Shown piece after piece: positions 3,443-38,876 of a stretch of DNA of 41,781 nt. Under the pieces are notes generated by a model, which saw nothing but the letters and a program-made list of their open reading frames with translations, was not told the origin of the DNA and did not search any database. The stretch comes from a virus. The DNA lies in IMG/VR virus record IMGVR_UViG_3300045988_112575, positions 1 through 41,781 of that record. The stretch is one strand, 5' to 3'. Position 1 is the first letter of the stretch; the number at the start of each line of letters is the position of its first letter. Both the position numbers and the translations under genes were made by a program.

Positions 3443-4731
3443 TGAACTCAGCCTATTCCCTGGAGGCTGAAAACTCTGTGCTGGGTTCCATTCTCCTGGA
3501 CGCTTCGGTTTTTCCGGGCGTTCGGGAGGCCCTCACAGCAGAGGATTTCAGCAACACCGTAAACAAGGCCATTTATAAGGCCGCTGAGGGCCTTTTCAAC
3601 GCAGGTAAGGTAGTTGACCCGGTAAGCATCAAAAGGGCCGCAGAAGCGATTCTAGGCGGGTCTGAGGATGTGAATCTGAATGACTACATGCTTCAGCTCC
3701 TGGAAATCACACCGACAGCCGCCAATGTGAGCGAATACGTCAAGTTGGCGCGAGACGCTTCTATGCGCCGACAGCTTATCGAGATTGCCCGGAAGATCGA
3801 GACGTATGTAGAGAGCTACTCCCCGCCTAGAGAAGTGATCGCATCCGCTCAGAAAGCCTTGCAAGGCATTGAAAGCAACGAGAGGAACCGGGAAACCATC
3901 AGTTTCTCCGATGCTCTGACTGACTTCCTGGTCCTTCAGGACGAGATTCAGACCGGTGTATGTTTATTCATAAAAACTGAATATAAATACATTGACAGAG
4001 TGCTTGGAGGTGGCTTGCTCAACAGCGGTTTCTACCTGCTGGCAGGCCGTCCGGGTATGGGTAAGACCACGCTGGGCTTGAACATCGTCCGTAAGGTAGC
4101 GAAGAAGGGATTGCCGGTGCTGTTTGTTTCTCTGGAAATGTCCAAAGAACAGATCACGCAGAAGCTTCTAGCTCTGGAAACCGGCCTCTCCACGCAGGAG
4201 CTTGTCGGAAAGATGGACGCCCAAGCCGTGGACAGGGTGACAGAAGCGGTTACGCAGATACACGAGTTACCGCTCACTTTGAACCAAAAGACGGACGCTA
4301 CGGTATCCGATATAGCAAACATGGCTCGCGCTGTGAAGGGGCTAGCTTTAATATGTGTGGACTACGTAGGTCTGATTGAACCAGACGACAAACGTGCAAA
4401 GCCTTATGAAGGTGTGTCTCAGGTATCCCGTGATCTAAAGCGTTTAGCCATGCGTCTGAATATCCCTATTCTGGGTCTAGCACAGTTAAACCGGGAAGTT
4501 ACTGGCCGTAGCGACAAACGTCCTCTGATTTCTGACCTTCGTGATTCCGGCAGGTTGGAACAAGATGCGAACGGGATTATCTTACTGCACAGACCAGATT
4601 ACTACGACCCAAACTACAAGCACGATGGAATCTCTCCTGTGATTCTAGAGGTTGACATTGCTAAGAATAGACACGGCCCCACCGGTAAGGTAACACTGGA
4701 CTACTACCTGACCAACGGCCGGATTCTTTAG
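3439..4731 (+). CDS. dnaB: replicative DNA helicase DnaB
   Basis: N-terminal AENSVLGSILLD, Walker A GRPGMGKTT, LEMS, VDYVGLI, QLNREV, RDSG motifs. Confidence 0.92.
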   Translation: MMNSAYSLEAENSVLGSILLDASVFPGVREALTAEDFSNTVNKAIYKAAEGLFNAGKVVDPVSIKRAAEAILGGSEDVNLNDYMLQLLEITPTAANVSEYVKLARDASMRRQLIEIARKIETYVESYSPPREVIASAQKALQGIESNERNRETISFSDALTDFLVLQDEIQTGVCLFIKTEYKYIDRVLGGGLLNSGFYLLAGRPGMGKTTLGLNIVRKVAKKGLPVLFVSLEMSKEQITQKLLALETGLSTQELVGKMDAQAVDRVTEAVTQIHELPLTLNQKTDATVSDIANMARAVKGLALICVDYVGLIEPDDKRAKPYEGVSQVSRDLKRLAMRLNIPILGLAQLNREVTGRSDKRPLISDLRDSGRLEQDANGIILLHRPDYYDPNYKHDGISPVILEVDIAKNRHGPTGKVTLDYYLTNGRIL

Positions 4732-30475: not shown

Positions 30476-31725
30476 TTATCCAGCGCCGAGATACCCGGCA
30501 GTCACTTCCCCGCCGGTCATGTATCCTGCGTAGTCTTCCGGCGCATCGTCCTCTTCGTCGTCCCAGAAGACAGGCTCCTTCTCTTGAATGGCTTCTGCCG
30601 GTAACACACGACTTACGCAGTAGTAGCGCACACCGTCGACCGTGTGGGTCACCTCGTGCGGGTCTTTGGCGCAGTCGTTCGGGTTCTTCTCGTCCGCCTG
30701 AATGTCCTGAATATCCCCGATAGCACCCTTGCAGGTGTTGAAGAACAGCAGGCCAGGCAGCTTATCAGGAACCGTGCCGTCATCCCGGCGGAACATAGCC
30801 TGCACATGTGGGTCACGCAAAGGATAGGGAGCCATAGCTTCCTTCATCATCATGTGGCCCTGAACGCGGTTGTTATCCGCTTTGATAAGACCAACCTGGT
30901 TCAGCATGAACACCTCCGCCATGGTCTTGCCGGTGTCCTTCTGCCTGCTCCACATATCCGGTGGCGCATAGGTGGCCGCGATATGCTCACCCGGAAGGGT
31001 CAGTTCATGTATTTTGTCTGCTGCTTCCTTGACGATCAGGCCCTTGTGAGTGAACTCCCGGTAGCACCAGGAACGTCCATCCTCATCCACCGCCCACCAG
31101 TAACACGCGAACATGTCAAGGCCGTAGTCGAAGCTCCGGTATCTCTGCCAATGGTCAGGAATCTTGAAGGGCTTTACCACATGGGTAGCTGCCGAAAACT
31201 CCGGGAAGTAGTTGCCGCCAATTGCGTTCCAATCGCCATAGCGGTAAGCCTTTCGCTTGTCTTCCGGCATATTTGCCAGCATCCGAACATAGCCGGGAGA
31301 AGAAGCCATCAGGTGATAGTTGTCTTCCACCGTGGCAGGAATGAAGCTGTAATCATCCGGGTTCTCATTCTCTTCCGGGTTGTCCGAGTTGAGCTTGAAG
31401 TCCCGGTCAACGAAGAGCCGCTTCACCCATCTGTGTCCAACACCACCAGGGTTACAAGTTAGGTACATCCGCTTCGGGAACTCATTGACACCACGAAGAC
31501 AGCCGCCCAGGAAGTTGAACGCTCTCTCAGAAAACTGCGTTGCCTCGTCAATGAAAATCCAGTCGTATTCCAGACCGTTGTATTCGTCCTCAGAAGCATC
31601 TCCGGCCCAGTGGCCGAACTTGATGGTCGAGCCGTTGTGGAAGGTCATAAGGTGCGTTGTGGCGTTGTAAGAAGCTGCTTCACGCGGCACCATCTTCACG
31701 ATAGGTCTGATATGGTTTTCTTCTA
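30476..31725 (-). CDS. terL: terminase large subunit, exon 2 (Walker B and nuclease domain)
   Basis: DWIFIDEATQF Walker B, TCNPGG; frame open upstream of listed GTG to ..EENHIRPIV; joins exon 1 in frame (229+1250=1479 nt). Confidence 0.85.
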
Positions 31726-32528
31726 CAATTTTGTTATCGCAAAGGCTTTTTATCCTCTGCTTCTAGCCCTTTCGGGTAGTTCGGCATATCTCTCTCCCCC
31801 TCTGGGGACCCGCTCTCGTGGGTGTGTCACCTGTTCTAGGTCCTCACCTATGCTCTGCGGCTGGACGGCATCCCTGCCGGCCTTCACCTCTGATTAGCCT
31901 GTCTGTAAATCGTTTGCGTAGATTGGCGTCGCAGCTAATCCACTGGCAATTCTCCGGGCAGTAATCACCATCCGGGTCGATGCGGTCAATGGAAAGAATC
32001 TCCTTGTGTGGAGTGTCCTTCGGCTGCTCGTAGTACCCATGTTCATAAGCCCAGGCCCGGAACGCAGCGTAATCGTCTTTCCACTCGTCACAGACCTTGA
32101 TTCCCTTCATGGAGTAGTTCTTTCTGTGCTGCGCCTTGTTGTAGTAACAGCGTTGCTTCATGGCGTACCAAATCGTATAGAGCCGTTCCTTCTTGGAGTA
32201 GCCGTGCTTCGTGTTTCGTTCCCTGGTACACTCAGCTTTCAAGCACCCGCAAGAACGTGTCTTCCCTTTCACAAGGTCAGTACCGACTACCAGCGTCGTC
32301 ATGCCGCAATCGCAGGAACACAGCCACTTACCAACAGCCTTTCTCTTCCCGTTGGGAAGGACCTTGTGCTGCAACTGATACTCAATGACGGTCAAGCGCC
32401 CAAAACGCTGGCCTGTCAGCTCGTGTCTACGCATATATGAACCCCCTCTGGCGTTATTTACAGATTTAGCTTCCCAGCTTTTTAGCAGGTTTCTAACGTG
32501 TATTCCTACACGCCGGAGCAAGAAGTTT
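31726..32528 (-). mobile_element. Group I intron (803 nt) carrying an HNH homing endonuclease ORF, inserted in terL
   Basis: P1 exon CCUGAGU with intron GCUCCGG (U-G at the splice site); P10 CUUCU with exon-2 AGAAG; terminal G before UAGAAG; GNRA hairpins in the 3' part. Confidence 0.75.
31844..32434 (-). CDS. HNH-type homing endonuclease (zinc-ribbon N-part, IDRID...N..W motif)
   Basis: LTGQRFGRLTV, WLCSCDCG...SCGC, YTIWYAMKQRC, LSIDRIDPDGDYCPENCQWIS; ATG 32434 after AGAGGGGG RBS. Confidence 0.8.
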   Translation of the reverse strand: MRRHELTGQRFGRLTVIEYQLQHKVLPNGKRKAVGKWLCSCDCGMTTLVVGTDLVKGKTRSCGCLKAECTRERNTKHGYSKKERLYTIWYAMKQRCYYNKAQHRKNYSMKGIKVCDEWKDDYAAFRAWAYEHGYYEQPKDTPHKEILSIDRIDPDGDYCPENCQWISCDANLRKRFTDRLIRGEGRQGCRPAAEHR

Positions 32529-32757
32529 ACTCAGGATAAGTGCGACGCATAATCAGAATCCTGATTCCCGGATTCGTAAAAGCGCCTCCGACAGCTTTGA
32601 TTCTGACGCTGTGTGTTTTGCCACCGCCCTTAGCACCGCCGTAAGCTGTATAGGTTGTTCTCGATAGGTAAAACAACCTCTGCTTTGCATTTGCTTCCCC
32701 AGGGTCCCAGACGATTTCCTTCTTCCCCTGCCCCCGGTACATTCTTCTCTTTGCCAC
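32529..32757 (-). CDS. terL: terminase large subunit, exon 1 (Walker A)
   Basis: YGGAKGGGKTH Walker A, ...LIMRRTYPE then in-frame stop that is the first intron codon. Confidence 0.85.
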
Positions 32758-32780
32758 GAACTCACCCCATTTCAGGCAAC

Positions 32781-32827
32781 AAAAAAAGGGCCAGCCACCT
32801 AGAAATTTCTTTCTAGGTAACTGACCC
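32781..32827 (-). terminator. Very strong unidirectional intrinsic terminator about 25 nt upstream of the terL start
   Basis: Minus strand 18-bp stem GGGUCAGUUACCUAGAAA-GAAA-UUUCUAGGUGGCUGGCCC followed by U7; three G-U pairs make it minus-strand specific. Confidence 0.85.
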
Positions 32828-32866
32828 CATTCGGCCCATCCTACCCACCACTTAGAGTAGGGTTAT

Positions 32867-33019
32867 TCACTTCTCTGTGGTGCAAACAACCTTTCTGTGT
32901 GTCTGCACCACCTTGACACTGTTGTTCTTTCCCGGAATGACCTCTACCCGGTCTCCCCTGGAAAGTGCTGCCTCAATGGCAGCGATCACCTTTGCATTAA
33001 GAGAAACCAAGTAGAGCAT
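32867..33019 (-). CDS. possible 50-aa ORF between tRNA-Ser and the terminator
   Basis: MLYLVSLNAKVIAAIEAALSRGDRVEVIPGKNNSVKVVQTHRKVVCTTEK; RBS spacing is poor. Confidence 0.25.
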   Translation of the reverse strand: MLYLVSLNAKVIAAIEAALSRGDRVEVIPGKNNSVKVVQTHRKVVCTTEK

Positions 33020-33035
33020 CCCCTTTCTTATTCGG

Positions 33036-33125
33036 CGCGAGGAGGAGGATTTGAACCCCCGCAGGCTATATAGCCCCTAGCGCATTTCAAGTGCACCCTC
33101 TTCAACCAGCCTTGAGTATCCCCGC
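33036..33125 (-). tRNA. tRNA-Ser (anticodon UGA), class II with long variable arm
   Basis: GCGGGGA acceptor, TGGTTGAA D-loop, anticodon loop CTTGAAA, variable arm GGCT-ATAT-AGCC, T-arm GGGGGTTCAAATCCTCC, discriminator G; CCA not encoded. Confidence 0.85.
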
Positions 33126-33477
33126 ATATAAATGCCCTACCAGAATTGCACTGGCGCTCTTGTCCCAAAGAAAGCTGCTATTTACGGGCCGCAGCTTATC
33201 ACATAGGAGGGCGGTAGAAACCAATGAAAAGACCGCACCGAAAGGAGCCAAACTCTAGGTCATGCCCTAAAGCCCAGCACATGGCCCGTCTTTCCGGGCT
33301 GTCAGCCTGCTTCTGGTCGTGGCATGATTTTGTACCTGCTATCCAAGAGTGTGCCCAAACCGAATAGCAAACCACGCTCGCATATCGCAGACAGCTGAAA
33401 AACAGAGATAAGAATGGAAGCGAATTTCACTTCCTTTCTGTTCTGTATTTTCGCCCTCCCTGGTGAAGAAGGGCTGC

Positions 33478-33547
33478 TGGTACCCAGTAGAGGAATTGAA
33501 CCTCTAAACACAACATGCCATATCGTGTCCGTAACCTTACACTAGGT
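33478..33547 (-). tRNA. tRNA-like element with canonical acceptor/T-arm and encoded CCA but no proper D-arm (anticodon GGC if read canonically)
   Basis: ACCTAGT/ACTGGGT acceptor, AGAGGTTCAATTCCTCT T-arm, ACCA end; middle folds as one 10-bp hairpin. Confidence 0.4.
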
Positions 33548-33780
33548 ATAGTTGTTTATAATCTGTATATGTGTCGAGTTCCCTGTTCTATATTTCAGAG
33601 TGGCTTTTCTGAAATGGTGTCCCCCGTTTTTCTGGGGTATGGTTTTCGTGAGAGGTATGTTTGGAGGGTTGCTCTCAAGAGTGTGTGTAGTCTATACAGG
33701 GGCCGGCCGCCAGAGGAGCCGCCCTTTTTCTGCCACACCCTCACTGTTTGGTAGGGGGGTGGTAGGGGTCCCCCCTATAT

Positions 33781-33900
33781 AGTAGGCACGCACACCCCCG
33801 CGCGGGCGCGGGGCCACGCGCCCCCCGGCCCCCACCCCCCAGGCCCAGGCCCGCGCCCGTGCTGGTGGTGGTGTGCCTGCTGTGCTGGTGTGTGATAGCC
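33781..33900. other. Extremely GC-rich, strand-asymmetric block (C-rich on plus, G-runs on minus)
   Basis: cccccgcgcgggcgcggggccacgcgccccccggcccccaccccccaggcccaggcccgcgcccg; minus strand GGGCCTGGGCCTGGGGGGTGGGGGCCGGGGGG. Confidence 0.9.
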
Positions 33901-33923
33901 TGTCAAATTCCTGTCAAATCAGG
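33898..33923 (+). repeat. Iteron pair GCCTGTCAAATTCCTGTCAAATCAGG (CTGTCAAA twice, 11-bp period), copy A
   Basis: Near-identical to reverse complement of 37546-37570. Confidence 0.85.
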
Positions 33924-34007
33924 AGAAAACCCTTATATATCAATGTGTTAGCTATGCCATAATAGCAGAGAAGCACAGATACATACATATATAATGTACC
34001 TGTGCTA

Positions 34008-34406
34008 TCACTTGAACGCATCCGCGCCACCCACACCCTGAATCTTCAGAGTAATGGTTGCGCCCTGATCTCCTGTATTAATTGGGCTATCGGTATAGCC
34101 GCCGTTTTTGCTTTGTTTGAGTTGGAATATAGCAGCCGTGCCGGCTTTGGGATCGTGTTCCAACATAGTAAGAAGCCGGTGCTCCCGGAATTGCTGCAGC
34201 CTTTTTAGTGGTGCATCGTATCCGTGATATGTGTCCCCCTTCTCCCCACCCCGTCCATACCTTTCCAGCGTTGCGGGGCTTACCTGAAGGAATTTACACA
34301 ACTCAAAATCAGTGGGGATAAGCTCTTCTTTTTGGCACTTTTCAATAAATTGTGTAATGAAAAGGTCCAATTTTTGTGGAGAATCAATCTTTTTCTTGTT
34401 TGCCAT
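34008..34406 (-). CDS. terS: terminase small subunit
   Basis: HTH CKFLQVSPATLERY, AAIFQLKQSKNGGYTD motif; ATG 34406 (MANKKK) after AAGGAG. Confidence 0.8.
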   Translation of the reverse strand: MANKKKIDSPQKLDLFITQFIEKCQKEELIPTDFELCKFLQVSPATLERYGRGGEKGDTYHGYDAPLKRLQQFREHRLLTMLEHDPKAGTAAIFQLKQSKNGGYTDSPINTGDQGATITLKIQGVGGADAFK

Positions 34407-34480
34407 TGATTTCATCTCCTTGCTTAAAATGTTTTATATATTTGAAAGTATACAAATCTTAATCCTGCTTTGGTAAGTCA

Positions 34481-34509
34481 AGTATACCACATGTAATCAA
34501 AATAATCAA
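34481..34509 (-). promoter_or_regulatory. Late/packaging promoter (TTGATT-N17-TATACT)
   Basis: Minus strand TTGATTATTTTGATTACATGTGGTATACT about 70 nt upstream of terS. Confidence 0.65.
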
Positions 34510-34548
34510 GAGGAATACGAAAGGTATTATTAGAGAATTTAATGGAAA

Positions 34549-34596
34549 GGGCCTGTTACCATCAGGGAATTTGATGGATTGAAACAGGCCCTTTTC
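34549..34596. terminator. Bidirectional terminator hairpin enclosing the second repeat-like element
   Basis: GGGCCTGTT...AACAGGCCC outer stem, CCATCA/TGATGG inner stem, T-runs on both sides. Confidence 0.75.
34555..34585 (+). CRISPR. Degenerate type I-C-like solitary repeat (GTTACCATCAGGGAATTTGATGGATTGAAAC)
   Basis: GT start, 6-bp hairpin, then TGGATTGAAAC, the 11-nt I-C 5'-handle sequence. Confidence 0.45.
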
Positions 34597-34613
34597 TATA
34601 CTCTTATATATAC

Positions 34614-35278: not shown

Positions 35279-35782
35279 ATGTTAAAAATCTTTGTGAATA
35301 CCTGGGGCAACTACAACAGGAACGGCGCAGAAGGCGGAGAGTGGCTCACTCTCCCGATGGAAGAAGAAGAACTCGATGCTAACCTCTCCCGCATCGCTCA
35401 GAAAATGGGCGATAACTCCCCTGAGTGGGCCATCCACGATTACGAATGGGACAGAGGCTTTTACTCTCCCATCGGTGAGTATGAGAGCATCTCCCGCCTC
35501 AACGATATGGCTCGCGACCTCGCAGACATGGACGAGTACGATTTAGAGAAGTTGGACGCGATGATTGAGGCGTTCAGCTACGACCCAGCGGAAGCTCTTT
35601 ATCGGTTCGACGAATACACCTACTACAACGGCCAGACACTCCGAGAGGTAGCGGAAGAGCTTGTAGAGGAGTGCTACGACATCCCAGAAATCGCACTTCG
35701 CTACTTTGATTACGACGCTTTTGCAAGAGATTTGGAATTTGACGGATACACAGAAACCAAAAACGGTGTCCTTGCTTGTTAA
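35279..35782 (+). CDS. ardA: ArdA antirestriction protein
   Basis: MLKIFVNTWGNYNRNG..GEWLTLPM, EWAIHDYE, very acidic, RYFDYDAFARDLEFDGY; ATG 35279 after AGGAGG. Confidence 0.8.
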   Translation: MLKIFVNTWGNYNRNGAEGGEWLTLPMEEEELDANLSRIAQKMGDNSPEWAIHDYEWDRGFYSPIGEYESISRLNDMARDLADMDEYDLEKLDAMIEAFSYDPAEALYRFDEYTYYNGQTLREVAEELVEECYDIPEIALRYFDYDAFARDLEFDGYTETKNGVLAC

Positions 35783-35872
35783 TAGCCGAAACGCCCCTTC
35801 CGGGCGTCTGCCGGAAATAGCCTACCGGCACTGATGAGGCAGGCTAAACACAAGATCAGGAGGATAAATACC

Positions 35873-37748: not shown

Positions 37749-38876
37749 TTATTTATCAACGCTTTCCTCGTTTTCTACATCATCCTGACAGAGAAATTGA
37801 TTCAGCCTCTCCGTTGCCGCTTTCTTCTGCCGTTTCCGAATATGCGTATACACGTTAAGCGTGGTTTGTATATCCGCATGTCCGAGAAGATCTTGCATAT
37901 CCTTCATTCCAACGCCAGCTTCATATAAAATCGTGGCGTAATAGTGGCGAAGTTGGTGAGATGTAACAGTCACTCTCCATTTGTCCAACCCGCGCAGTTT
38001 CTTTTTCCCCTCCGGCTGTTCTTTCTCTTCTGCCAACCCCGCAGAGATGCACCACCGTTTCCATGCGCGGTGATACTCATTTGCTGTCATATAGCCGTTT
38101 TTCCCCTTAAATATCATCCCGCTTTTGTTGCGTGGAAGCCTTTGCTTCAGTGGTTCCAACAGGGATATTTCCCGTTCTCCTGCATCCGTTTTCGGCGTTT
38201 TCACGCGCGGGATACCATTGATAAATTCAACGGAATGTTTCACACTGATCAAATTTTTCTTCCAGTCGAAATCTTCCCAGCGCAGGGCCAGCAGTTCGGC
38301 GCGGCGCATCCCAGTAAACGCCTGGAGCAGCGGAAACAGCCCAAATCCTTCACCACCAAATGCCGCCCGCACCTTATCCATTTGTTCGTCTTCCGGCGGC
38401 TCCCTAGTCCCTTTTGGCAGGTTTCCGGGTAGCTTTGCAGATCGCGCTGGGTTGTATTTAATCATACGCTTCAAAATAGCGTAATCAAAAATCCCGTTCA
38501 TCACGTTCTTCCGCTTAGACACAGCACTAAACCCCAACCCCTTCGCCGCTGCGCTCTTTAAAAAGTCCATGATCTCATCAGCGTAAATGTCACCAATGTT
38601 TCGCCCGGAAAACCAGTCCTTCGCTTCGCGCAGAGAGGGCATGTACCCGTGTTCCGTGTTCCAGCCGACCTTATCCACTTCTATCTTAAAATTGAGCCAT
38701 TCGTCCGCCACCGTCTCAAACAGCACAGCCTTCTCCTTGGCTTCCTCTTCGGCCCGGCTCCACTCCGCCATTTTCCGCCTAACTTCCTTTTGAGTTTTTC
38801 CGTAGAAGTATTTGGGTTTCGCCATCCCCGGCAGCTTCACTTGCTCCTGCCACCGTCCGTCTTTTCGTTTGATCAT
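37749..38876 (-). CDS. int: tyrosine recombinase / phage integrase
   Basis: N-terminal SAM-like domain, GMRRAELLAL, HQLRHYYAT, LLGHADIQTTLNVYTH catalytic R..HxxR..H..Y. Confidence 0.92.
   Translation of the reverse strand: MIKRKDGRWQEQVKLPGMAKPKYFYGKTQKEVRRKMAEWSRAEEEAKEKAVLFETVADEWLNFKIEVDKVGWNTEHGYMPSLREAKDWFSGRNIGDIYADEIMDFLKSAAAKGLGFSAVSKRKNVMNGIFDYAILKRMIKYNPARSAKLPGNLPKGTREPPEDEQMDKVRAAFGGEGFGLFPLLQAFTGMRRAELLALRWEDFDWKKNLISVKHSVEFINGIPRVKTPKTDAGEREISLLEPLKQRLPRNKSGMIFKGKNGYMTANEYHRAWKRWCISAGLAEEKEQPEGKKKLRGLDKWRVTVTSHQLRHYYATILYEAGVGMKDMQDLLGHADIQTTLNVYTHIRKRQKKAATERLNQFLCQDDVENEESVDK

Follow-up and report, generated by a model that had tools for sequence, protein, structure and literature searches.

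A terminase-gene gap in an uncultured temperate phage appears to combine a candidate DNA site with small RNA modules, including a pseudoknotted tRNA-spacer motif

Organisation of the terS–terL gap

The IMG/VR record IMGVR_UViG_3300045988_112575 (41,781 nt, called the window here, to which all coordinates refer) is the genome of a temperate gut phage, with genes for an integrase, a cI-type repressor, an antirepressor, DnaB, RusA, ArdA, a P22-like portal and an amidase. Between an open reading frame (ORF) that plausibly encodes the small terminase, TerS (34415..34008, minus strand), and the first segment of the large terminase gene, terL (start at 32757, minus strand), lies a gap that measures 1,250 nt, as a sequence-only reading of the window had noted; that reading saw in 33126–34007 a candidate large structured RNA. 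We describe here what the gap contains and conclude, with a probability of about 60%, that it is an insertion hot spot of independent non-coding modules, one acting as DNA (module A) and one made up of RNA genes (module B), rather than a single RNA. The sense strand of the locus is the minus strand, along which the features are ordered as follows.

34008..34415, minus strand: terS-like ORF of 135 aa, a helical protein of helix-turn-helix type
33972..34006, minus strand: hairpin of 13 bp directly 3′ of the terS stop codon; its U-rich tail is weakly terminator-like (fold and relatives)
33585..33969, minus strand: module A, a family-wide conserved non-coding module of ∼385 nt (iterative nhmmer)
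33478..33547, minus strand: tRNA-like gene with a 7–8-bp acceptor stem, a 3-bp mini D arm, a long anticodon-type arm (loop AUGGCAU) and CCA (cloverleaf fold)
33416..33474, minus strand: two hairpins after the CCA (fold and relatives)
33220..33410, minus strand: clade-specific conserved non-coding stretch (alignment of relatives)
33127..33219, minus strand: pseudoknotted tRNA-spacer RNA motif, 93 nt (covariance model and covariation)
33034..33125, minus strand: canonical tRNA-Ser with UGA anticodon (Rfam, 42.7 bits)
32867..33019, minus strand: 50-aa ORF between tRNA-Ser and gut-2 (phrog_29211, E = 3.7e-7)
32787..32864, minus strand: gut-2 RNA (32864–32817) overlapping a 19-bp intrinsic terminator (32828–32787) (Rfam and fold)

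The last two of these, the 50-aa gene followed by the gut-2 RNA and terminator, fill the ∼270 nt of the gap outside 33126–34007. Within 33126–34007 there is no ORF longer than 79 aa, and the three ORFs tested (33515–33754, plus strand; 33302–33511 and 33199–33375, minus strand) have no Pfam or PHROG match, which agrees with the earlier view that about 880 nt of the gap lack a credible ORF. Six close IMG/VR relatives differ from the window by several 1–2-nt indels across this region, and it is therefore taken to be non-coding. A peptide of 30–42 aa in 33430–33302 was considered and rejected, as it has no usable ribosome-binding site (RBS) and its frame and stop are lost in L001, L003 and L004 (loci are cited by such handles where they must be told apart).

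Our comparison set comprises 87 loci on 81 distinct IMG/VR contigs that carry terS or terL relatives, with terL identities of 60–99%; the terL relatives come mainly from metagenome bins of Oscillospiraceae and related Clostridia, and the full-length ones are circularly permuted assemblies. The gap is 88–95% identical in six full-length close relatives, so that the conservation looked for in the sequence-only reading is present at this range. Further away it changes both in length and in content. The spacing between terS and terL is only 27–98 nt in the most distant relatives, and gaps of 0.4–1.9 kb in others hold tRNA genes for Ser, Met, Ile, Lys, Gln or Thr, an array of eight tRNAs, or a 263-aa ORF (in the clade labelled 63%). 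The 1.25 kb of the window is therefore not an ancestral unit. The segments also differ in their phylogenetic ranges: module A occurs in 66 of the 81 related contigs, the stretch 33410–33220 is confined to the close clade, and the 93-nt motif is found in unrelated phages. These differences indicate that the segments are independent modules.

One large non-coding RNA of the GOLLD, ROOL or HEARO type, made from the late promoter and covering the whole 880 nt, would suit a region that is ORF-free, kept in close relatives and associated with tRNA genes. That association is real, although the description of the region as bracketed by tRNA genes does not hold, the sole canonical tRNA being Ser-UGA (33125–33034) on the 3′ side. 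Searches with Rfam 15 on both strands, made with cmscan at gathering thresholds for the whole window and at E≤10 for 31500–34600, gave no match to GOLLD, ROOL or HEARO. At gathering thresholds the window contains the tRNA-Ser, the gut-2 RNA (32864–32817) and a type II hammerhead ribozyme (35784–35848); at E≤10 there are the tRNA-Ser, gut-2, a sub-threshold tRNA (16.5 bits, 33547–33481) and noise. A blastn search of the gap and of one copy of the 93-nt motif against 50,697 annotated phage records returned nothing meaningful.

The folding data point the same way. All five stems named in the sequence-only reading are present (33172–33197, 33284–33299, 33593–33614, 33752–33777 and 33796–33813), and the minus strand of the whole gap region is moderately more stable than chance (z = −3.5, 20 shuffles per strand), which would favour a large RNA; the plus strand, however, folds equally well or better (z = −4.7), so that the hairpin density is not specific to the minus strand. 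The excess stability stems from inverted repeats and gives no strand. Some helices that hold G·U pairs are restricted to the minus strand. For the 290-nt sub-region 33415–33126 the value is z = −0.58. Covariation among relatives is absent from the most widely conserved part of the gap, which has no consensus structure, and strong in the 93-nt motif. There is no common multi-domain fold across the gap, its segments are found independently in other phages, and the internal terminator-like hairpins and encoded CCA end point to several separate products. A single large RNA is thus the least probable of the explanations considered and is largely refuted already; structured minus-strand RNA was correctly predicted for two sub-elements, the tRNA-like element and the 93-nt motif.

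A pseudoknotted RNA motif in tRNA spacers

The most valuable result of the analysis is the 93-nt motif, which in the window ends 1 nt before the tRNA-Ser. Its parts are:

5′ end of the motif, minus strand: CCUCCU tract
33172..33197, minus strand: helix P1
33158..33171, minus strand: helix P2
33140..33154, minus strand: helix P3, with the T-loop-like sequence UGCAAUU
33186..33189 with 33134..33137, minus strand: pseudoknot of the P1 loop with the 3′ tail; an 8-nt AU-rich linker and the tRNA-Ser come next

P1 is the stem AAGCTGC/GCAGCTT of the sequence-only reading. In a sensitive search with 33480–33126, the last ∼80 nt proved 73–75% similar to sequences that lie beside tRNAs in unrelated relatives (L101–103, L041/43), and the first four distinct versions already showed compensatory changes. 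With a covariance model, R1, additional clades proved to have the motif; after IMG/VR had been scanned for the pattern, the model located it in ∼30 unrelated viral contigs of 4–480 kb, and a metagenome scan added 34 stretches, human gut and fermentation metagenomes being among their sources. The distinct copies, from phage and metagenome contigs, number 55 in total.

The fold of the motif is shown by covariation. From an alignment of 27 copies made with MAFFT only, RNAalifold recovers P1, P2 and P3, and 11 of the 14 pairs have compensatory changes. The pseudoknot was spotted by eye: in the P1 loop, the four nucleotides that precede an invariant GUAAAA are paired to the four after P3 and a UU linker. 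On the structure-blind alignment its pairing reaches 93%, two of the pairs showing 7 and 10 double changes, and the whole structure including the pseudoknot has 93.5% of its cells paired, compared with 68% for shuffled sequences (none of 500 reaching the observed value) and 27–44% for slid partners. An alignment-free test on the 55 copies gives the same picture, with all four pseudoknot pairs formed in 38 copies and three of four in a further 13, and a paired fraction of 0.891 against 0.575 ± 0.032 when the tails are shuffled. The pair types include GCCC/GGGC, GGGC/GCCC, GCUC/GAGC, CCCC/GGGG, CGGC/GCCG, CCAC/GUGG and ACCC/GGGU, among others. A closing helix P0 in our first model, between the CCUCC tract and a 3′ GGG, was replaced by this better-supported pseudoknot.

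The 5′ part of the consensus consists of a CCUCCUUU-like tract, AUAU, and P1 (6 bp) with the loop N-PK-GUAAAA, where PK and PK′ are the two pseudoknot strands; the 3′ part consists of the variable P2 hairpin, P3 with the sequence CC(A/G)G-UGCAAUU-C(U/C)GG, UU, and PK′. The unpaired nucleotides that are invariant are GUAAAA in the P1 loop, the UGCAAUU T-loop and the UU linker. P3 resembles a T arm in which G replaces U55, and the loop of divergent 84%-clade copies is the canonical UUCGAUU. At the 5′ end, the CCUCCUUU-like tract precedes the motif in 25 of 27 copies (33202–33212, minus strand, in the window). In L043 (3890–3905) the tract reads AUCACCUCCUUUCUAA, which we take to be essentially the 3′ end of 16S rRNA (the anti-Shine-Dalgarno region). 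A role for the tract as an RBS for the opposite strand was rejected, since tRNAs lie there.

Where tRNAs are called, the motif usually sits between co-oriented tRNAs. Among 40 copies checked with ARAGORN, 25 have a same-strand upstream tRNA, mostly 3–41 nt away, 14 have a downstream tRNA that starts within −3 to +12 nt, and 11 are at loci without any tRNA call. Directly after the motif copy in L103, the sequence 4410–4560 is tRNA-Ser-like in its 5′ half and ends in a canonical T arm, GGCGGTTCGATACCGCC, with ∼60 extra nucleotides between; ARAGORN makes no call there. Rfam 15 gave no match at the motif positions in the window or in 22 related or motif-bearing loci, and those loci likewise showed no large-RNA family. 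The motif is apparently an RNA family not described before; its general kind, that of small structured RNAs in phage tRNA arrays, is already known.

The position of the pseudoknot helix directly 3′ of the T-arm-like hairpin suggests that it stacks on P3 and so would mimic the acceptor/T-arm minihelix of a tRNA. The motif may then aid the maturation of polycistronic tRNA transcripts, either as a landing site or boundary for enzymes of the RNase P or RNase Z type or as a self-cleaving element.

The tRNA-like element and the conserved stretch 33410–33220

Module B (33547–33034) would be an RNA-gene cassette co-transcribed with the late operon, and contains the CCA-ending tRNA-like RNA, the clade-specific stretch, the 93-nt putative tRNA mimic and the tRNA-Ser. 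The tRNA-like element noticed in the sequence-only reading is real (33547–33478), with an acceptor stem, a perfect, canonical T arm (GAGGUUCAAUUCCUC), a discriminator A and an encoded CCA. Its cloverleaf has a fold z of −2.3. It scores 16.5 bits against the Rfam tRNA model (RF00005), under the gathering threshold of 29, has no canonical D arm, and is called by ARAGORN in D-armless mode only, as Ala-GGC. Mean pairwise identity among close relatives is 97%, and all four substitutions seen in relatives keep pairs, changing G-C to G·U or A-U to G·U.

Two hairpins follow the CCA. L002 and L004 have an unrelated hairpin in place of the first (33474–33453), and the second (33434–33416) is terminator-like; a theta or hepatitis delta virus (HDV) ribozyme fold for the post-CCA hairpin was rejected because there is no P1/P1′ complementarity. 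In L016, from the 84% clade, two elements take the position of the tRNA-like element: a ∼50-nt mini tRNA-like sequence (2375–2425), in which a 5-bp hairpin accompanies an acceptor stem and a T arm, and a diverged sequence related to the pseudoknot motif (2427–2532), whose T-loop is canonical.

The stretch 33410–33220 holds the hairpin GCCCG-GAAAGA-CGGGC and a 13-bp hairpin which, because it has five G·U pairs, could form on the minus-strand RNA only. The stretch as a whole is not unusually stable (z = −0.58), close relatives show 1-nt indels in it, and no homologues were found outside the close clade. Its mean pairwise identity in seven close relatives is 97%, compared with 95% for the tRNA-Ser, 88.5% for terS and 86% for the 5′ end of terL, a contrast with the coding genes that is inflated by allele mosaicism. 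The segments of module B together are 95–97% identical in close relatives, against 86–89% for the terS and terL coding DNA.

The tRNA-like elements and the conserved stretch might instead be functionless, decaying remnants of captured tRNA genes or morons, their conservation reflecting no more than recent ancestry. The gap is a clear insertion hot spot with rapid turnover of cassettes, the tRNA-like element 33547–33478 falls under the Rfam threshold, and 33410–33220 is clade-restricted and not unusually stable, all of which would fit such decay. Against this, at least 55 distinct copies of the 93-nt motif exist in unrelated contigs with compensatory changes in four helices, the substitutions in the tRNA-like element preserve its pairs and leave the CCA intact, and these segments are more conserved than the tRNA-Ser and the neighbouring coding DNA. 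We consider decay very unlikely.

A family-wide non-coding module upstream of terL

Iterative nhmmer searches from the window find module A in 72 of the 87 loci, without exception co-oriented with terL and upstream of it. Three clades, the window's own and those labelled 84% and 81%, have it between the two terminase genes; the 63% clade, L078/79 and L084 have it upstream of terS, and loci whose terS is elsewhere have it upstream of tRNAs and terL. The features within it are:

33899..33919, either strand: two direct repeats of 10 nt, ATTTGACAGG (minus strand), at a spacing of 11 nt; candidate TerS-binding iterons
33796..33890, either strand: GC block with up to 80% G+C (100-nt windows), minus-strand G-runs and a CCCCGCG/CGCGGGG stem; varies by clade
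33749..33777, minus strand: C-rich tract with two copies of CCCCTACCA at 11-nt spacing, including a TAGGGGGG/CCCCCCTA stem (sequence)
33718..33740, minus strand: core block GGGTGTGGC(A/G)GAAAAAGGGCGGC, the most conserved sequence of module A (relatives of 60–99% terL identity)
33656..33698, minus strand: downstream blocks, namely a TATA-like block, CACAC, TTGAGA(G/C)C and CCAAACATA, at a fixed 50–53 nt from the GAAAAA block

Across the family the order is a GC/GT-rich stretch, the C-rich tract, GGGGGT(G/A)GCGGAAAAA(G/C)GGGCGG, ∼25 variable nucleotides and then the downstream blocks, which read TATA-like, CACAC, TTTGAGAC and CC..CCAAACAT. The core columns G..G...C.GAAAA are invariant in 26 diverse sequences and the distance from GAAAAA to TTGAGA, counted on anchored sequences, is constant at 50–53 nt; the blocks stay invariant while the flanking TerS proteins fall to 27–40% identity. 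The GC block, by contrast, varies among clades in both length and sequence. The counterpart of the C-rich tract in the 63% clade is a poly-C tract.

The repeats, which flank the core, differ between clades and keep the same 11-nt phase, as with two copies of CTGACAGG in L029 and a seven-copy 11-nt array in L055; GATTGAC was found three times by eye in L025. In the 63% clade (L055 2181–2279, L047 2700–2760 and others), tandem 11-nt units, GCAAGTTCAAC / GCAAGTTACTC, lie between the conserved core and the terS promoter, and their number varies from ∼2 to 8 among otherwise similar phages.

Module A has no consensus RNA structure: RNAalifold finds 0 consensus pairs in 26 diverse sequences, and the single-sequence folds share only a possible hairpin between the C-tract and a G-run. 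In L047, moreover, the genes upstream of module A are on the opposite strand and a sigma-70-like promoter (TTGCGA-17-TATACT) lies between the module A repeats and terS, that is, downstream of module A, and hence no promoter that would transcribe module A is seen in this member of the 63% clade.

We conclude that module A is most likely a cis-acting DNA site, judging from these observations, either for packaging recognition (of the cos or pac type) or for late control. A packaging region is suggested because the core tracks terL, the phased repeats change with terS, and the module can lie on either side of terS; in the 66 contigs it is, as expected of cos or pac, non-coding, conserved, and next to and co-oriented with the terminase genes. 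Module A would act as DNA, as a packaging-initiation region with a terL-linked core, GGGGGTGGCGGAAAAAGGGCGG, followed by the TATA, CACAC, TTGAGAC and CCAAACAT blocks. Binding of the phased repeats would fall to the small terminase and action on the conserved core to the large one, in the manner of cosB/cosN or pac.

The main rival for module A is a role in late transcription, as an activator-dependent or alternative-sigma promoter or upstream activating sequence (UAS), or as the template of a put-like antitermination RNA that lets RNA polymerase through the terminators 33434–33416 and 32828–32787 into terL. Module A is always upstream of and co-oriented with terL; the TATA-like block and then CACAC at a fixed distance from the A-tract give most clades a promoter-like layout; the downstream terminator-like hairpins would need read-through; and a hairpin of the C-tract with the G-run just 5′ of GCGGAAAAA is possible in most members. 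A published catalogue, too, lists candidate structured RNAs upstream of psiM2_ORF9-type terminases (PMC10690425). On the other hand, module A has no recognisable −35/−10 pair and no covarying helix, the 63% clade lacks the TATA block and has its separate sigma-70-like promoter downstream of the module, and 11-nt phased repeats that change with the terS clade suit a TerS-binding array better. A sigma-54 promoter (TGGC-N-GC) was rejected because the position of the GG varies among clades. Control of late transcription, in either form, is on this evidence rather unlikely, at something like one chance in four.

Several contigs stop inside module A. The partial contig L006 ends at window position 33809, in the GC block, and three contigs of the 63% clade (L046, L048 and L052) start in the poly-C tract, a C/G homopolymer, all at different nucleotides. 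Physical genome ends were therefore rejected as the origin of these termini, the more so as just 2 of 13 further contigs end there.

Flanking genes and other elements

The label terS is plausible. The 135-aa protein has no match in Pfam, PHROG, NCBIfam or PDB sequences, and its AlphaFold2 model, with a mean confidence (pLDDT) of 69, has as its best fold match the P22 gp3 small terminase (3p9a; TM 0.56, E = 3). The gene adjoins terL in most relatives but not in all, and is downstream of terL in some. From its position and the weak fold likeness to P22 in the predicted model, it is plausibly the small terminase. The stem of the hairpin that follows it (33972..34006) is kept in relatives through a compensatory change of A-U to G-C, with a shortened version in L004 and L005.

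The first segment of terL is a 76-aa ORF (32757–32527, minus strand) with a Walker A motif, matching phrog_979; the remainder is at 31699–30476 (minus strand) and matches Terminase_3 / Terminase_6N. Compared with named phages, terL has 23–36% identity, too remote for a cos or pac mode to be deduced. The gene is split by an 803-nt insertion (31726–32528, minus strand) that carries an HNH endonuclease ORF (32521–31844; phrog_374, E = 6e-51). Five of six full-length close relatives lack the insertion, which is present in L002, and its exact excision rejoins the terL frame (...RTYPE|VEENHIRP...). It is probably a mobile intron, and no Rfam group I model matches it.

The 50-aa ORF 32867..33019 is kept in the 84% clade at 42–52% identity, and for this reason we regard it, from sequence comparison, as a real small late gene. 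The gut-2 RNA (RF02990) exceeds its gathering threshold of 39.8 bits, with 41.5 bits in the window and 47–49 bits at the same place upstream of terL in six relatives (L014, L016, L019, L020, L047 and L062). The terminator 32828–32787 (z = −5.7) shares GGGGUC with gut-2 and lies 30 nt before the terL start. This layout looks like an attenuator or a riboswitch-type control of terL, in which the gut-2 leader and the strong terminator would gate read-through into terL.

Other RNA elements occur nearby. The type II hammerhead ribozyme (35784–35848, plus strand) scores 49.8 bits and separates the ArdA gene, which ends at 35782, from the following ORF (35834); relatives have type II hammerhead (L019, L087) or twister-P5 (L029) ribozymes a few kb upstream of terL, on the opposite strand. 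In L035–L040, tRNAs with a CUA anticodon (called Pyl by ARAGORN; amber-suppressor type) directly follow the terS-like gene (e.g. L037 6465–6548), and one motif-bearing contig has a UUA-anticodon tRNA (L170 347–428); stop codons may be recoded in parts of the phage group, given these tRNAs. An attP site at the gap was rejected, the integrase being 4 kb away (37749–38876) and the acceptor stem of the tRNA-like element complete. L094 (CAKUYO010000154.1), a contig of 3.1 kb whose terL is 99% identical in amino acid sequence to that of the window, is in a bin labelled Bacteroidales; this short contig is probably mis-binned, as most terL relatives are in bins of Oscillospiraceae or other Clostridia.

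Functional implications

A more specific proposal can be offered as a tentative one, with the odds against it: that the 93-nt motif is an undescribed pseudoknotted RNA class of phage tRNA spacers in gut, rumen and other samples, whose invariant unpaired nucleotides form an active or recognition surface, and that it would work in one of two ways, as a new type of ribozyme that cleaves itself and thereby separates the tRNAs of an array, or as a mimic of tRNA by which host enzymes of tRNA processing or targeting are recruited or diverted; and, separately, that module A would be the packaging site of a large phage family of Oscillospiraceae.

Several observations weigh against our interpretation of the gap. 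A processing role for the motif leaves the CCUCCUUU-like 5′ tract of 25 of the 27 copies unexplained, and a mosaic of modules gives no explanation for the stretch 33410–33220. Mosaicism of the terS and terL alleles confounds the finding that the gap is more conserved than its flanks, and the transcription, processing and activity of the RNA elements are predictions from sequence. With respect to packaging, the identity of the 135-aa ORF as TerS is itself plausible rather than proven, the stops of contigs in module A look like assembly failure and not like a defined cos end, and the site has been assigned from assembled contigs instead of virion ends. The portal of the window is also P22-like, and in headful phages of the P22 type pac is usually inside terS.

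The locus nevertheless provides a caution for annotation, in that an ORF-free, hairpin-rich phage gap beside tRNAs need not be a GOLLD- or ROOL-like RNA; here it resolves into a putative DNA-level site and small RNA genes. Module A is a concrete candidate for a packaging or late-control site in an abundant family of uncultured temperate phages, found in metagenome bins that are mostly Oscillospiraceae, and could help to orient and circularise assemblies; it also accounts for the contig breaks at this place. The 93-nt motif, with 55 copies and four covarying helices, is supported well enough for an RNA family entry. Along with theta and hammerhead ribozymes, it points to phage tRNA arrays having RNA devices of their own, for maturation or for manipulation of the host.

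Comparison with known systems

GOLLD (RF01998) and ROOL (RF03087) are large RNAs of phages and prophages that occur near tRNA genes (PMC5737381). The gap resembles them in its phage location near tRNA genes, but it has no covariance-model match and no single large fold, and it splits into small independent modules.

In the tRNA-like structure (TLS) of turnip yellow mosaic virus (TYMV) type, the equivalent of the acceptor arm is built by a pseudoknot between the 3′ strand and a hairpin loop, beside a T-arm-like hairpin. The 93-nt motif likewise has a loop-to-3′-strand pseudoknot directly beside a T-arm-like hairpin, and the hairpin in the anticodon position is variable and non-decoding. It differs in being internal to a DNA-phage transcript, between tRNA genes, rather than at the 3′ end of an RNA genome; its pseudoknot strand is followed not by CCA but by the 8-nt AU-rich linker and the tRNA-Ser; and its T-loop, UGCAAUU, has G where U55 would be. 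No part in aminoacylation is plausible for the motif.

The motif can also be compared with the stable RNAs C and D (species 1 and 2) of the T4 tRNA cluster, which are 120–140 nt long, non-decoding and matured with the tRNAs. The likeness is that of a non-decoding RNA inside a phage tRNA gene cluster, which would be matured with the tRNAs.

Theta ribozymes, which are minimal HDV-like ribozymes with a nested double pseudoknot and a catalytic C in J4/2, are found in the tRNA arrays of gut phages, where they cleave no more than about 5 nt from the 3′ end of a tRNA, and a role in tRNA end processing has been proposed for them (PMC10879173). The motif is similarly small, pseudoknotted and highly conserved, and lies between tRNA genes of uncultured gut Caudoviricetes. 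In most copies, however, it starts 3–41 nt after a tRNA and in about one third it ends at the 5′ end of the next one, and it is built of P1, P2, P3 and a loop-to-tail pseudoknot rather than the nested double pseudoknot of HDV. Identity with a theta or HDV-like ribozyme was rejected on the grounds of tRNA distance, helix order and the lack of any match to the HDV family or clan in Rfam.

Both cos sites of the lambda type, with cosN and cosB, and pac sites of the SPP1 or P1 type are non-coding, multi-block sites beside the terminase genes. Module A has no sequence homology to any characterised cos or pac site; the core matches the P2 cohesive end at 10 of 14 bases, a weak resemblance that we take as a lead only. 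It differs from lambda cos in lying, in the window's clade, between terS and terL rather than upstream of terS, and from known cos and pac sites in that the portal is P22-like, the core has no evident rotational symmetry and the site is seen here in assemblies. It resembles them in being a non-coding site of ∼200–400 bp, made of several blocks beside the terminase genes, with short repeats phased at about one helical turn next to a conserved GC-rich core, and in being co-oriented with the packaging genes. The 63% clade has core, repeats, promoter and terS in the order of cosN, cosB and Nu1 in lambda.

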